Shown here in pieces: positions 1-9,000 of a DNA stretch of 64,000 nucleotides (the stretch's first letter is position 1; every line of letters begins with the position of its first letter). This DNA is from an uncultured Bacteroidales bacterium (GTDB taxonomy: Bacteria > Bacteroidota > Bacteroidia > Bacteroidales > JAADJA01). The position numbers were made by a program. The stretch covers positions 361-64,360 of the forward strand of contig CAVXTE010000027.1 in NCBI GenBank assembly GCA_963764475.1, written 5' to 3'.

Positions 1-3000
1 CAAGTAAAGTTTGTAACTTTGTGCGAAGCATCAAAAACAAAAGAAGATGAGCCGGACTTACAAGTTTGCTGATCCTGAAGGATTATATTACATTACCTTT
101 GCAACTGTCGGATGGATTGATGTATTTACAAGAAAAGTGTATAAAAATATTTTAATCGACAGTCTTAAGTTTTGTCAGAGAGAGAAAGGATTATTACTCT
201 ACGCTTACATTATAATGACAAATCATATGCATCTGGTTGCAAAATCTAAGGATGATTTTAATCTTAGTGATACCATCCGCGATTTTAAAAAATTTACTTC
301 GAAGCAGGTTATAAAAGCCATCGAACAAAATCCGGAAGAGTCAAGAAAAGAGTGGATGCTGAGTATGTTCAGGAAAGCCGGACAATATAACAAAAATAAC
401 CAGGTATATCAATTTTGGCGGCAGGACAATCACCCGATAGAATTGTATTCGAATGCTGTAATCGATCAGAAAATTAACTATATTCATGATAATCCGGTAG
501 AGGAAGGCATTGTGCTTAATCCGGAAGATTACCTTTACAGCAGTGCAAGGAATTACGCGGGATTGGAGGCTGAGATTGAGATGATATGAAAATAAGTTGC
601 AAACTTAAAGAAAATGAAGGGTGAATGGAACAAAGCCCACAAGTCGCGCCATCGCACAGGCCATCGCAGGAAGACTTGCGGGTGCGGGGAATAAAGGGGA
701 AGTTTTTATATTTGCTGTACTTAAAACTTAATTATTTGAAATATGAAGCTTGAAAAAATACTTGATAGCCTGAACTCATTTGAAAAGAATTCTTTTTTGA
801 AAGTCTTAGACAGTATCATAATTAATTCTCCAAAAAATATTAAAGATGTCGATAAAATCCTAACTGATCCAAACCGGGATTTGAAAAATATTGATAATAT
901 CAACATTGCCAAAGTATTTAATATTATTGAAGAAGAATTTACAGATTACCTAAGTATTGAATTTTTAAATACAACGTCGCAATTTGATATTTTAACAGAT
1001 ATAATATCAAGAGATGGAAATTGTATTATGAAGCAGGATTGGTTATCCCGTCTTTATGATCAGGAATTAAAGATTCTTGAGAAGAAAATAAAATTACTCG
1101 AAAAATCCCTGGCAGATGAGAATTCAGATATTGATGAAAACAGACGTCGGGACTATTTAATTTATAAAGCCTGTTTATTCACAGCCTATAATAATGATTT
1201 GGAAAACAACCTGGAAAGTAAGATTACATCGGATGAACAAACGATCCTACAAACTCTTTCCAATCAGCTTGGTTTATCAAAAGAAGAAATAAAACTCATA
1301 AACCATTTAATAATACCGATTAAAAAACAACAGATAGATACTGTTATAAATGATTTGAAATCATTAGGAGTAGTTTTTTATTCGAAAAAAGCCAGTACAA
1401 TTTATGTAGCTGATGAGGTTGTTAAAATACTTCGTAAAATAAAAGGTAAAGAAGTTGCAGATAAATATTTCAGACGTATTTTACGCTTACTTCGTGAACC
1501 GCAGCTCAACCTTATTTGTAAAATACATAATTTAGACAGGAAACTCCCGATTGATCAGAAAATAAAAGAAATCATCAATGTTGGCGTATCATTTTCGCAG
1601 GTTTTGATTAATGAAATGCATAAAGAAAACACAAAGATAAATGATAAGAAAAAAGCCATAAATGAAATTTGTGATAAAGGATTGAAGATTTCTCCCCCTC
1701 TTAAAGGCACAACAATCGAAGAAAAAATAAATAACCTGATCAAATATTTCGAAGATATTGAAAAAGATGAGCGGGTTGGAATTTCAATTGATGGATATGA
1801 AAAATTATTGACTGAAATGGGTGAAATGATTCCTTCTTTAAACAATCGGTTGAAAAATGAATTTGAATTACAGGAAGAAAAAATATTGATTAGTAATCTC
1901 CTTCTTGATTATAATATTAAACCGCGAGATATTCTTGAACTTATCCCGACTCCCGATATAGAAAATTTCTGTAAAGCAAAGAACATAAAAACAAGGGGTG
2001 ATATAATTGATAATATACTCAGCGCATACAAAGATGCCGAGAATCTGTATCTAGAAAATTATGAAAATATAGGATTTAGAAATTTCAATTTGCTTAAAGA
2101 AAATGGTCTGCTGATAAAAGAAGCTGAATTGGGTATAAAGTTCGAGGACCTTACCAAGACAATATTCACAAAACTGGGCTTGAACGTGGATGAAAAGCTC
2201 AGAAAAAAGCTTAACACAGCTAAGGATAAAATTGATATTGTAATAAACCTTGGAAATAATGAGATCATCCTTATTGAATGCAAGACCGTGAAAGAGAGTG
2301 GTTATAATAAGTTTAGTTCTGTTGCAAGGCAGCTCAAATCATATATAGCCTTAGCTACGCATAATAATTATAAAGTCATTAAATCCCTTTTAATAGCACC
2401 TGATTTTTCTGATGAATTTATCAAGGATTGCGGAATTGATTATGAACTGAATCTATCACTTATTAAAGCATCAACGTTAATAAATATACTTGACGGATTT
2501 AAAAACTCTAAGCTTAAACAGTTGCCTTATAATCTGTTAAGAAGAGATGTATTGATACAGGAAGACAGGATACTAAAGGCTATTGGGAAATGACCCCATA
2601 AATCGCTCACTCGCATAAGCCTCGATTGGAAGACATACTAGTGCTTGGATCCAGTTTTAATGGTTAAGTATTTATTAAAAAATTAATTATTATATATATG
2701 GATCCTTCAATTGAAAATGACCCTATCCTAAATTTTTGGTACAAGCTTCTATATAAAGAATTAAATGTTATTAACAAATACAGAGATATACGTCTATTGA
2801 CATTAATTCTTCATTTGCATTCAGAAAAAGTCATCAATCAATTAATCTCGAATAGATTAAAAAATGAAAAACGTATTTTTAATAATCGCTCTTTGAATAC
2901 TTATTCATGTAAAATAGATTTACTAGATTCTTTAGGAATTTTCAAAGAGAAAGAAACGTATTCAAATTTAAAAACTTTAAATAAGATTAGAAATATTTTT

Positions 3001-6000: not shown

Positions 6001-9000
6001 TTATACTTACGTCGATAAAAGCGAATATAAAAAGAAACCGAAAGGAATCTTGTCAAGAAACGGAAATCACGATTGTGCCTATGATTTTATTGAAGATAGC
6101 ACGAATGTATATCTCAAATTAAAGTTTAAAGGTTGGTTACTTAACGGAAATCAAGAAATTGCATATTATACAACCGTTTATCTGCCTTTTGACTGGAAAA
6201 CAAAAGAAATCATCCGGTATGCTTCTCCGGAATTTCAGATGCAAAATGACAGTCTGATCATTCATGAACTGGATGTCCGGGAATCTATGAATACAAAGAC
6301 TACCGGATACTTTATCGGTTTCGATGGGAATATGAAATTCGGTTATATTGGGAAAAAGACACATGCATTTACCGTTGAATCAGTGTCGGATTAGGCTTGG
6401 AAAATCTTAACTCGCCCGAGTCTGAAGCCAGGCCTGTGTGTTGAGACTCGTGCCAGTATAGTAACTATTCAACTATAAAATCGTCTTAGCTGAAACTAAT
6501 AAAGCAATGATGGAAAATAATAAGAGCTCACTCAAAAAGACGGCAAGGCTTGCGGGCCTGCTTTATTTTATCTGGATAATTACAGGCATATATGGCGTTT
6601 TCTACGTTCCGGCACATACAATTGTATCGGGTGATGCCGCTGCCACCGCTAATAAGATTGTCGCCAACGAGTTTTTATTTCGAACAGGTATCATTAGTGA
6701 TATTATAAGCAATACGCTTTGGGTGTTTATCGGATTGACGCTGTACCGGTTGTTCAAACAGGTAAACGAACGTCAGGCAAGGCTCCTCGTTGCGTTGGTG
6801 ATCGTGCAGGTTCCGGCTGTTTTTTTTATGGAAGCACTCAATTTTACTTCTCTGATGCTATTCAAAGGTGAATTCTTACAATCGTTCGGTCCCGGCCAAC
6901 GGCAGGAACTGGCCATGCTGTTTCTTAAAATTAATGATCATGCCACACTTATACTTGAAATGTTCTGGGGACTTTGGTTATTGCCGTTTGGCCTGCTGGC
7001 TTACAAGTCAGGATTTATTCCGCGCATATTGGGCGTACTTCTTATTCTTAACGGTATCGCTTACATCATCCCCAGTTTTGTGAATATTCTTTTTCCCGGC
7101 TACCAGACACTTGCTTCACAAATTGCCATGCCATTCTGGATATTAGGTGAAATTTCAATCATGCTCTGGCTTTTGATCAAAGGTGTAAAAAGTAATTTAC
7201 TCAAATCGCCTGAGTCTGAAGCCACGCCTGTGTGATGAGACGCGTGCCTTTGAAAACTTGTTATCAAAGCCAAAAACTCCATATTTGCATCATAAGTCTT
7301 AAATACAAATGCAAAAATCCTGATGGGAATTTGTAATAGCTCGAGTCTCTGCATGAAAGCTACGCTTCAGAATCGCTCTAGTATTGGGAATTCATTAGTT
7401 TTTACCGAAAAGCAGTGACAGAAATTTTTGTTCCCTATCCATTCTCCAGGATGAACTTATTGCGATGCTTAATGTTATAAATGCACTTTATAAATGCATA
7501 TTTACAAAACATTAAACACGAAATAAATGAATAATCATAAAAGAACAATTGTTGTTGTTGGTGCTACAGGAGCTCAGGGTGGTGGCCTTGTGAGAGCGAT
7601 ACTGAGTGACCCGGACCACGAATTTCATGTACGGGCCATTACGCGTGATGTAAACAGTGATAAAGCAAAGGAACTTGCGAAACAAGGTGCCGAAGTTGTT
7701 GCAGCCGATTTGGATGATCCTCAAAGTATTAATAAAGCTTTTGAAGGAGCATGGGGAGCCTATTGTGTAACGTTCTTCTGGAATCATTTTTCGCCCGAAA
7801 AGGAAATGATGCATGCAAAAGTAATGGCCGAGGCAGCGAAACATGCGGGGACAAAGCATGTCATCTGGTCGACACTCGATGATACACGAAAATTTATTCC
7901 TCTTTCCGATAATCGCATGCCTACCCTGATGGGAAAATATAAAGTGCCTCATTTTGATGCAAAAGGCGAGTCCAACCATTTTTTTACTGACCTGGATTTA
8001 CCTGTTACCCTTTTTAATACCGCTTTTTACTGGGATAATTTTATCTATTTCGGGCTGGGTCCAAAAAAAGGCCCGGATGGTAAACTGGCTATCACGCTGC
8101 CGATGGGCGACAAAAAACTGCCGGCCATTGCATCCGCCGATATTGGTAATTGTGCTTTGGCTGTATTTAAGGCCGGATCAAAATATATCAGAAAAACAAT
8201 TGGAATAGCCGGCGGACATTTAACCGGAAAACAGATGGCGGATGCCTATAGCCGTGTATTGGGCAGGGAGGTTGTTTATAACGCCATTGAACCGGAAGTA
8301 TACCGGGGTTTTGGATTTCCCGGTGCCGAAGACATGGGTAATATGTTCCAGTTTAAACGTGATTTTGAAAAGGAATACTGTAAATCGAGAGACCTGGAAT
8401 TTACCCGTTCACTGAATCCATCAATCCTCTCGTTTGAACAATGGCTCACTCAAAATAAAGATCGCTTACTCGCTGAATAAAGTCGAAAATCGAAAGTACG
8501 GAATGCGAAACTGCCAACTCGCTCGAGTCTGAAGCCAGGCCTGTGTGTTGAATCCCCCGTTCGGCTAAGGCTCTGCCTTAGTCGAATATGTCCCAGTTGC
8601 CTCAAGCTTGAAACTTGTTCGTTAATCAACCCCAACTCGTCTTCCTTCTTAACGAAGACACATTTACAAATACATCTGTAATGCAAAAACACTTTAATAA
8701 TAACCGGGAAAAAGAATATTTTCCGCTATATACTCGCTTTCGCTTCGTGAGATCGTTTCGTTTAGTTCCCCTAAAGGGGACTTGCAAAACCCTCTTTAGA
8801 GGACAGGAGGTGGAATGACCGATTAGATATTACATGACACTGGTTATTAGAATTAGAACCTAAAGAATTGACCGTTCTTTCATACATTCTTTCATCATTT
8901 GGTAAGTTCTTTCAATATTGTTATCCAACCCAATGGCAAAACGGATTAATCCGCTGGTCAAACCCATTTCCGCGTGTTCCTCCGGTGATATTTCAGATGA

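Follow-up and report, generated by a model that had tools for sequence, protein, structure and literature searches.

Several systems in which a transposase gene is associated with short hairpin repeats are already known from bacteria. They include the tyrosine transposases associated with REPs (RAYTs, also called TnpAREP; REP, repetitive extragenic palindrome), the REPtrons, in which REP hairpins stand inverted on both sides of a RAYT gene, the REPINs, in which two inverted REPs form one long hairpin, and mosaics resembling bacterial interspersed mosaic elements (BIMEs). A locus of this general kind can be found at one end of a 64,000-nucleotide (nt) stretch from an uncultured Bacteroidales bacterium (GenBank assembly GCA_963764475.1, contig CAVXTE010000027.1, positions 361 to 64,360), referred to below as the window. 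Here a RAYT gene is followed by six co-directional genes, with hairpin repeats in most of the gaps. The locus is a local variant of the known REP/RAYT system and not a new integron-like gene-capture machine. The explanation that fits it best, and that we think rather probable, is that a REPtron with flanking hairpins of its own (REP-R) borders a strain-variable stretch of accessory genes, and that non-autonomous derivatives of related REPtrons have colonised the gaps in that stretch.

The RAYT concerned belongs to subclass 2.6, for which the signature NH[LIV]H / YIH[QN]NP and a length of 179 amino acids (aa) are given (Quentin 2018, PMC6006769), and which corresponds to group 5 of Bertels 2017 (PMC5581495). 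An example of RAYT-family genes beside variable neighbours can be found in picocyanobacteria, where TnpAREP is associated with prochlorosin genes and a diversifying role was proposed (bioRxiv 10.1101/2020.03.09.984088); the authors of that preprint later reported no strong evidence of causality. A literature search returned no description of REPIN-punctuated gene arrays in Bacteroidota. How REPINs originate and whether DNA is still moved by RAYTs has yet to be settled, and descriptions of the Bacteroidota subclass are scarce.

The RAYT and its flanking hairpins

The unit at the head of the block has two parts within the window.

47-589, + strand: RAYT (TnpAREP) gene, 180 aa, assigned by Pfam, NCBIfam and motifs to Bacteroidota subclass 2.6 (RAYT group 5)
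636-688, + strand: REP-R, the downstream hairpin belonging to the RAYT; its inverted partner lies upstream of the window start

The product of 47-589 scores 28.4 bits against the Pfam family Y1_Tnp (PF01797; cut-off 23) and 93.3 bits against NCBIfam NF047646, REP_Tyr_transpos, which is above the curated cut-off of 80. Its HUH motif reads NHMH and its tyrosine motif YIHDNP. Its 5580 homologs come mostly from Bacteroidota, where about 182 aa is the typical length, and several bear the name RayT. The gene is thus a RAYT of Bacteroidota subclass 2.6. An exact-protein look-up returned no record for RAYT variant P0002.

Other identities were tried and rejected. The IS200 transposase model gives 23 bits against a cut-off of 55. 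A whole insertion sequence (IS) of the IS200/IS605 type does not fit either, as the REP-R flanks are inverted, not direct, and the window holds a single RAYT gene. Weak tblastn matches to a second Y1 transposase at 60874-61818 fall in what Pfam identifies as a Por_Secre_tail protein.

The window begins 46 nt 5' of the RAYT gene, and the upstream REP-R arm therefore lies outside it. The inverted arm is present in three other assemblies that carry the same RAYT: L002 (ENA ERZ25039549), L003 (from a third sample) and the metagenome-assembled genome (MAG) L006. The inverted pair occupies 302-357 and 992-1047 in L002, and 9927-9950 and 10593-10616 in L006, where the two arms are 92% complementary. 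Hairpins inverted on both sides of the gene, the arrangement of a REPtron, are thus seen in these three assemblies. The high copy number of classical REPtrons is not: an exact-match scan of the L006 MAG, which diverged copies would escape, found three copies of a REP-R 18-mer, all at the RAYT locus.

At the nucleotide level the window's RAYT gene is 99.7% identical to those of L002 and L003 and 97% identical to that of L006. The four assemblies are identical through position 688 (...GACTTGCGGGTGCGGG) and unrelated right after it, giving four right flanks for four assemblies. In L006 the flanks of the unit are unrelated to those of the window, and in L003 the right flank is. With 97-99.9% identity across four assemblies whose right flanks are unrelated, the unit looks recently mobile rather than like a fixed, domesticated single-copy gene. 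Directly at the REP-R foot, L002 has a 420-nt small-ORF module (1052-1471; ORF, open reading frame) and L003 has unrelated DNA (904-1363). Among the window, L002 and L003 the unit is 99.7-99.9% identical, compared with 91% for the neighbouring 616-aa gene (window vs L002), a contrast that suggests recent spread of the unit.

The REP-A repeat family

The gaps further downstream hold members of a second hairpin family, REP-A. Its elements, and a gap without one, are as follows.

2594-2697, no strand: gap in which no member of the repeat family can be recognised; it forms the left border of the segment missing from L002
3223-3411, + strand: REPIN-A copy 1, with left hairpin 3226-3272, inverted right hairpin 3359-3404 and right end AGTATTGGG
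3299-3306, + strand: promoter-like TAnnTTTG box TATATTTG in copy 1, of the Bacteroidetes -7 type
3314-3352, + strand: fossil RAYT codons 1-13 in copy 1, found by tblastn and blastn
4674-4697, + strand: REP-A left end cut after 24 nt; right edge of the segment absent from L002
6407-6461, + strand: solo REP-A unit of 55 nt, the left hairpin joined to the REPIN right end; identical in L002 at 5078-5138
7201-7389, + strand: REPIN-A copy 2, 87% identical to copy 1, with the fossil ATG mutated to ATA
8514-8551, + strand: REP-A left end cut after 38 nt; a complete REPIN-A stands at this place in L002

A reading of the window from sequence alone had placed one repeat family in each gap, directly after each gene. 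The common left end, CCAACTCGnnCGAGTCTGAAGCC, is indeed found at 3223, 4674, 6407, 7201 and 8514, so that five of six gaps are occupied. The contents differ in kind: two are doublets, one is a solo unit, and two are truncated left ends (4674 and 8514) fused to composite tails at 4698-5040 and 8552-8830, here called B-tails. The degenerate copy supposed at 2598-2648 finds no support, since its score of 12 compares with a shuffle mean of 11.6 and 993 of 2000 shuffles score as well or better. All copies in the window share a single orientation, and the right end reads ATT in every one.

The family is tightly clustered. The core CGAGTCTGAAGCC, allowing at most two mismatches, has seven matches in the 64-kb window, all at 3.2-8.6 kb, where 0.6 would be expected; none of 100 shuffles reaches seven. 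The remaining 55 kb has no core match. Five elements within one 5.3-kb span of 64 kb would arise by chance with P ~2.4e-4.

The doublets are 187 nt long. Between a left hairpin and an inverted right one lies a spacer of about 90 nt, and the 56-nt arms are 73% complementary. Folded as single-stranded DNA, a doublet forms a single long hairpin (-38.5 kcal/mol, z -5.7). Two inverted REPs forming one long hairpin is the architecture of a REPIN, and it is common to all five copies known from the window and L002. Deletion between two TCGTGCC repeats within a doublet would produce the solo unit.

REP-A is related to the hairpin beside the RAYT. As noted from sequence alone, the latter (636-688) has the same AGTC...CAGGCC...GACT skeleton and a different sequence; the two families differ in stem and loop alike. 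When 16 copies from REP-A, REP-R and other RAYT loci are aligned, pairing holds in 91% of the cells of the 10-bp stem, compared with 22-51% in slid controls, and two pairs have changed in a compensatory manner (GC to CG and GC to AU). REP-A and REP-R are homologous hairpins whose stem has been kept by compensatory changes. In the window and in the L006 MAG, neither behaves like a classical REP dispersed in high copy number.

Searches further afield found few relatives. A REP-A 23-mer has one match in 185,579 species genomes (contig L001), one in JGI metagenomes (contig L004) and none in viral contigs. A structured RNA or ribozyme and a plasmid or phage origin were also considered and rejected: an Rfam scan of 1-9000 gave one match, at chance level, and megablast of the same segment found no match among plasmids.

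A fossil RAYT start inside the doublets

The spacer of the doublets appears to hold the beginning of a RAYT gene. After the box TATATTTG it continues with ATGAGCCTTAAATACAAATTCAAAAATCCTGATGGA, which is translated as MSLKYKFKNPDG; the RAYT of the window starts MSRTYKFADPEG. When 120 RAYT homologs were compared with the window by permissive tblastn, 89 of them matched through residues 1-13 at 3314-3352, with 85% identity at best, and 18 matched through residues 1-12 at 7292-7327, in copy 2. Among the matches listed, no other bin beyond the RAYT gene itself reaches half of the larger number. By blastn, the doublet spacer also aligns with the RAYT gene start of L026, a Chlorobiota MAG.

REP-A doublets thus look like internally deleted RAYT units that kept their hairpins, the promoter region and 13 codons. 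The internal junction is common to all five doublet copies (two in the window, three in L002), and from this it follows that the deletion came first and the 187-nt element multiplied later. A REPIN-like element that still shows its descent from a RAYT unit is new. Such doublets would represent a still recognisable stage on the way from a full RAYT unit to a miniature repeat, and support the proposed origin of REPINs by internal deletion.

The REP-A-like elements of L001 and L004, which are contigs of UBA4459 (Bacteroidales), seem by eye to hold a comparable fossil start. A motif directly 5' of the RAYT start codon, AGTTTGTAACT...ATCAAAAACAAAAG (window 1-46), recurs in these contigs at L001 3970-4015 and L004 6395-6440, 3' of the REP-A-like element, where no RAYT gene follows. 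The motif is probably a further fossil of a RAYT 5' region.

Probable relics of other RAYT lineages

The tails fused to the two truncated left ends form a third kind of non-coding element.

4698-5040, + strand: B-tail 1, with hairpins 4708-4730 and 4773-4785 and shared core 4798-4890
8552-8830, + strand: B-tail 2, with hairpin 8560-8586 and shared core 8618-8721

The core of the first tail is repeated in the second. Both contain stable hairpins (-10.5 kcal/mol, z -4.5, in B-tail 1; -10.3 kcal/mol, z -4.9, in B-tail 2), and these, GGGTTTGCAACCC and GGGCTTGCAGCCC, match hairpins that flank the RAYTs of loci L047 and L040. B-tail 2 is 92.5% identical to L002 152-298, which stands directly upstream of the RAYT unit in both L002 and L003. 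There, in an alignment, the RAYT unit looks like an insertion after ...TAATAGCC, with a clear left junction and an ambiguous right rejoin, a suggestion that it inserted precisely into a B-tail.

B-tails resemble the upstream flanks of other RAYT lineages, left behind as relics and in some cases nested in REP-A hairpins. Judged by such likenesses, all the non-coding elements that can be identified in the block seem to descend from RAYT units, and these represent three or four lineages at the least.

Genes of the block

One repeat has overwritten the end of a gene. Most of 50 homologs of the DUF4386 protein cease to align at residues 228-234 of 242, close to where REPIN-A copy 2 starts at 7201, and the last ~11 codons and the stop codon are supplied by the repeat. 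The repeat overwrites the 3' end of this gene, and therefore was inserted into an existing gene end; the claim that repeats follow each stop codon is wrong at this point, where the ORF ends inside the repeat. The genes are as follows.

743-2593, + strand: 616-aa gene, possible PD-(D/E)xK nuclease; guanine-plus-cytosine (GC) content ~32%; present in L002 at 91% nucleotide identity
2698-3198, + strand: 166-aa gene with an Rx4H motif (RNIFVH), HEPN-like (unverified); absent from L002
3516-4643, + strand: O-acyltransferase gene, Acyl_transf_3 (Pfam, 72 bits); absent from L002
5054-6394, + strand: 446-aa gene with a signal-peptide-like N-terminus; 98-99% identical in L002
6507-7235, + strand: DUF4386 gene (Pfam, 168 bits, residues 15-226)
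7527-8480, + strand: NmrA-family gene (Pfam, 189.5 bits)
8860-10062, - strand: convergent gene for a Cys/Met-metabolism pyridoxal-phosphate (PLP) enzyme, Cys_Met_Meta_PP (Pfam, 326 bits)

All seven + strand ORFs and the convergent one lie where the sequence-only reading had put them, and Pfam agrees with its names for the RAYT, acyltransferase, DUF4386, NmrA and PLP-enzyme genes. Two of its labels fare less well. The "nuclease" has a sub-threshold HSDR_N_2 score (19 bits, cut-off 25) and no PADLOC or NCBIfam match. The "HEPN" protein has its Rx4H motif and, like the 446-aa protein, no match in Pfam, NCBIfam or PADLOC. Exact-protein look-up returned no record for the 166-aa protein or the acyltransferase. 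A defence island was considered and rejected, as none of the six block proteins has a PADLOC match.

A conserved operon into which repeats were inserted was rejected as well: none of 50 DUF4386-homolog loci carries another block gene nearby. Homologs of the acyltransferase (79-85% identity) lie in ordinary chromosomal surroundings that are free of repeats; their neighbours are other genes and do not include the 446-aa gene, and nucleotide homology is limited to the ORF with 22 nt upstream and 3 nt downstream. It had been proposed as a counter-test that the six genes might be syntenic core genes in relatives; the loci of DUF4386 and acyltransferase homologs are not syntenic. GC content is 31-32% at 1-4 kb and ~40% further on, and its range in the block as a whole is 31% to 41%. 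The genes form a non-syntenic mosaic that is not conserved and that differs from strain to strain.

Strain differences and breakpoints

L002 keeps the order of the window, with 99.7% identity in the RAYT, 91% in the 616-aa gene and 96.8% in the stretch from the 446-aa gene to NmrA. The sequence-only reading had called for a comparison of strains for the presence or absence of gene-plus-repeat modules; the window and L002 differ at three places. The extra 420 nt of L002 are flush with the REP-R foot. Window 2598-4697 (gap, 166-aa gene, REPIN-A, acyltransferase gene and truncated REP-A) is missing, so that the B-tail 1 hairpin comes immediately after the stop codon of the 616-aa gene; CCCC stands at both junction ends. 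After NmrA, L002 has a complete REPIN-A, and window 8552-10134 (B-tail 2 and the PLP gene) is replaced there by a Crp-like pseudogene (read from the sequence, with no family match), a cupin gene, a further REPIN-A and an ORF of 115 aa. Homology resumes at 10135, in repeat-free DNA. The block had been said to stop at the PLP gene; the convergent gene is there, and it is itself within the strain-variable segment, which ends near 10134.

L003 is identical to L002 through REP-R and unrelated beyond, and in L006 the same RAYT stands in wholly different surroundings, with no REP-A. In L002, REPIN-A elements stand beside different genes, and one is 96% identical to a window copy at another position. 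Genes that are intact in the window (616-aa gene, DUF4386, NmrA) carry many frameshifts in L002. These frameshifts look like long-read errors, and L002 identity values and small indels should be read with care.

Several of the strain breakpoints are flush with hairpin feet. REP-A itself is broken at differing points, after 24 nt (4697) and after 38 nt (8551). Y1 HUH cleavage at hairpin feet has been shown for other TnpAREP subclasses (PMC3333891, PMC8266576), and the foot-flush breakpoints match what such cleavage would be expected to leave; its role here we infer. Breakpoints at hairpin feet around an apparently recently mobile RAYT unit are new, and together with the unrelated flanks they indicate where the RAYT probably cuts.

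Homologous RAYT loci

In a survey of 68 homologous RAYT loci, the density of copies of the RAYT flank was recorded by distance from the gene.

1-3 kb from the RAYT: 0.16 sites/kb downstream, 0.069 sites/kb upstream
3-6 kb from the RAYT: 0.065 sites/kb downstream, 0.007 sites/kb upstream
6-10 kb from the RAYT: 0 sites/kb downstream, 0.005 sites/kb upstream

Flank copies thus concentrate within 6 kb of the RAYT, mostly downstream. The full pattern of a RAYT followed by repeat, gene, repeat, gene and repeat in one direction occurs at four of the 68 loci (L029, L052, L061 and L081), which makes the architecture of the window recurrent, in a minority of loci. This low-copy, local distribution of hairpins around subclass 2.6 RAYTs, with its downstream bias, is new. 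If the clustering holds genome-wide, subclass 2.6 repeats spread locally and could shape the turnover of accessory genes.

One of the four, L061, is an independent instance of the window's architecture. In this Chitinophagaceae MAG (9781-16000) the RAYT is followed by four co-directional unrelated genes, including a DUF2199 gene and one for a beta-lactamase-fold protein. Each is followed by a composite multi-hairpin repeat (GGTTAGTCTGCGACTAACC, CAGCCTCAACGAGGCTG, CAGTCCATCGTTGCAAACGATGGACA), and the run stops at convergent genes. In L026 (1-1350) an 88-aa ORF lies between hairpin copies, immediately 5' of a RAYT that is flanked by the same hairpins.

Origin of the array

A REPtron at the edge of an accessory stretch colonised by derivatives of its relatives is an explanation from transposon biology, which we prefer for several reasons: a RAYT start survives as a fossil, the doublets share one deletion junction, the repeats are homologous to RAYT flanks, a gene end has been overwritten and relics are nested. 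RAYT units would have lost nearly the whole gene by internal deletion and then multiplied, as REP-A doublets, in the manner of REPINs or miniature inverted-repeat transposable elements (MITEs), and the 55-nt solo unit would be a further deletion product. The HUH Y1 enzyme would cut and rejoin single-stranded DNA at the hairpin feet, with the cut predicted at the 3' foot, after GGGTGCGGG. Elements would hop short distances, all in one orientation, and the surviving insertions would mark tolerated places, which in a gene-dense co-directional block lie just past stop codons. Tolerance at gene ends alone would explain why nearly every gap near the RAYT is occupied. The hairpins may then act as breakpoints, through RAYT cleavage, repeat homology or microhomology, at which modules are lost or gained between strains. 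Which RAYT moves REP-A, that the hopping is local and that a RAYT takes part in the rearrangements are all matters we infer.

Several observations weigh against this explanation. The adjacent RAYT is flanked by REP-R and not by REP-A, so that the cognate pairing of REPIN and RAYT is absent. The sequence-only reading had asked whether RAYT homologs are flanked by the same hairpin; REP-A flanks the RAYT at none of the 68 loci, and pattern scans found none. The REP-A core pattern is missing from the whole L006 MAG, the RAYT of which is 97% identical at the nucleotide level. Since that MAG has the RAYT and no match to the REP-A core, this RAYT alone does not generate such an array. The orthologous doublets at window 7201 and L002 5870 are 88% identical, compared with ~97% for the genes beside them, a contrast in keeping with turnover or conversion, or else with errors in the L002 assembly. 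In 64 kb of the source genome, local hopping and the import of a repeat-rich segment would be indistinguishable. We know of no experimental demonstration of transposition by subclass 2.6. The earlier proposal that REP/BIME-type elements were spread into gene ends by the neighbouring RAYT therefore survives in part: the elements are REPIN-like derivatives of RAYT units, homologous to RAYT flanks, but the adjacent RAYT itself has other flanks, and the copies are locally clustered rather than dispersed.

Import is the theme of another explanation, in which the block, or some of it, is an island acquired by horizontal transfer from a donor rich in REP-A, or one prone to recombination. The repeats would be inert, the RAYT unit would have landed in REP-type sequence, and the strain differences would be ordinary recombination. 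Such an island agrees with the low, uneven GC content, the absence of REP-A from the other 55 kb and the fact that the parent RAYT of REP-A was not found, as well as with the apparent insertion of the RAYT unit into a B-tail, the CCCC microhomology at one deletion junction and the mutated fossil ATG in one copy. A single import is harder to reconcile with the spread of GC content in the block, 31% to 41%, given that both parts contain REP-A. No repeat-rich donor is seen either, the REP-A 23-mer being nearly absent from the 185,579 species genomes, the JGI metagenomes and the viral contigs. The 96%-identical REPIN-A beside different genes in L002 indicates recent spread, and clustering near RAYTs is general across the 68 loci. 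We regard an imported island as unlikely, if worth taking seriously. Integron-like explanations take the genes themselves as the mobile parts. In one, which was also the second proposal of the sequence-only reading, the RAYT would insert and excise gene-plus-hairpin modules as single-stranded circles, with the REP-R foot acting like attI and REP-A like attC. Unrelated co-directional genes without synteny in relatives, low GC near the RAYT (31-32% vs ~40%) as in the window's attC array, the 420-nt module flush with the REP-R foot of L002, the two missing modules (2598-4697), the REPIN-A-bounded modules after NmrA, the divergence of four assemblies exactly after the REP-R foot, the downstream bias of flank copies and the gene-repeat pattern at four of 68 loci can all be read in this way, and the mosaic of genes, the strain-variable modules and the foot-flush breakpoints stand as observations.

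In several details, however, the block falls short of what defines a cassette system. There is no constant crossover point, REP-A being broken after 24 nt in one place and 38 nt in another; the right border of the replaced segment (10134) has no repeat, nor has the gap after the 616-aa gene; one repeat truncates a gene (DUF4386); and the 2598-4697 difference can be explained as a deletion between CCCC microhomologies. The dead transposase start in the doublets marks a decayed transposon and not a recombination site. Modules common to the window and L002 stay in the same order, and L006 has the same RAYT without an array. Transposition of the RAYT unit itself would account equally well for the differing right flanks of REP-R, and the upstream sequence common to L002 and L003 is itself a repeat, which leaves a shared insertion site unproven. 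This HUH analogue of an integron is decidedly improbable. Its generalisation, that Bacteroidota subclass 2.6 RAYTs head REPIN-punctuated arrays and catalyse gain and loss of modules at hairpin feet with their own downstream REP as the entry site, is highly improbable; if true, it would provide a single-stranded, HUH-based counterpart of the integron. Alternatively, REP-A copies might be unusual attC sites for a tyrosine recombinase such as that encoded at 35707-36585, and the block a second integron-type array of the kind known as a cluster of attC sites lacking integron-integrases (CALIN). There is a resemblance between the outer ends, CCCAAC...ATTGGG, and the R''/R' boxes, RYYYAAC...GTTRRRY, the unit has the geometry R-spacer-L-loop-L-spacer-R, and a genuine attC array is present at 38-44 kb. 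Against this, the right end is ATT and not GTT in all REP-A copies and the left CCCAAC fits loosely; REP-A is homologous to RAYT flanks, holds a fragment of a RAYT gene and has no sequence similarity to the attC sites of the window (...CCGCCGGGCCGTTAA..). No tyrosine recombinase adjoins the array, the nearest Phage_integrase gene being that at 35707-36585, 27 kb away. An attC identity is scarcely credible.

Other features of the window

The genuine attC-type array extends over 38840-44000. Its sites end ...GCCGTTAAGT / GTTAATC, and its GC content is 31-34% compared with ~41% around it. Among the products of its cassettes are DUF4919, a PemK/MazF toxin, whose gene has a small ORF upstream, and a protein of the metallo-beta-lactamase fold. 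Rfam gives no attC-type match even here, and hence is no judge of attC membership. Just upstream of this low-GC array and co-oriented with it, at 35707-37758, a recombinase of the Phage_integrase family, which at 292 aa falls short of the typical IntI length, stands directly before an IS91-family Y2 HUH transposase (Zn_Tnp_IS91 and Y2_Tnp, 386 aa), so that there is an HUH enzyme beside that array too.

The last 25 nt of a tRNA-Asp gene (GTC) at 21511-21585 are exactly repeated 359 nt downstream (21920-21944); the copy may be what remains of an attachment-site duplication or of a second tRNA that has decayed. At 34985-35323 a 42-nt tandem repeat (eight copies, 89% matches) lies inside overlapping ORFs, and L006 2943-3212 holds an array with a 42-nt period.

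Comparison with known systems

REPtrons. Like the REPtrons of Nunvar 2010 and Ton-Hoang 2012 (PMC3333891), the locus has a Y1 HUH gene, inverted "atypical" hairpins without a GTAG foot, and related copies nearby. Unlike them, its flank is low in copy number (three in the one related MAG scanned, L006, all at the locus), its array uses a sister hairpin family instead of the RAYT's own flanks, and its RAYT unit looks recently mobile and not like a fixed, domesticated gene.

REPINs. The doublets share with the REPINs of Bertels and Rainey 2011 (PMC3116915) the inverted REP pair that folds into one long hairpin, the non-autonomous character, the several near-identical extragenic copies at gene ends and the link to a RAYT. 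They differ in a spacer of about 90 nt that carries the RAYT promoter region and 13 codons, in being few and confined to 5 kb of the 64-kb window, instead of dispersed in hundreds as REPINs are, and in standing next to a RAYT that is flanked differently.

BIMEs and mosaic REP clusters. As in enterobacteria, composite intergenic elements made of several REP types and linkers stand past stop codons, between co-directional or convergent genes. Here, however, the parts have the look of remnants of entire RAYT units that belonged to several lineages (REP-A, REP-R and B-type), some of them seemingly nested.

TnpAREP and prochlorosin genes. In both cases a RAYT-family gene is accompanied by co-oriented variable genes and conserved intergenic hairpins. 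The picocyanobacterial RAYTs belong to subclass 2.1 and face a single family (procA), whereas the one described here belongs to subclass 2.6 and is co-directional with unrelated genes.

Integron cassette arrays and CALINs. Co-directional unrelated genes, imperfect palindromes, low GC content, strain-variable modules and an enzyme gene at one end are common to both. In the present locus, by contrast, an HUH Y1 transposase takes the place of a tyrosine recombinase, a GTT core and a fixed crossover are lacking, one border of the island is free of repeats, and the repeats are decayed transposons.

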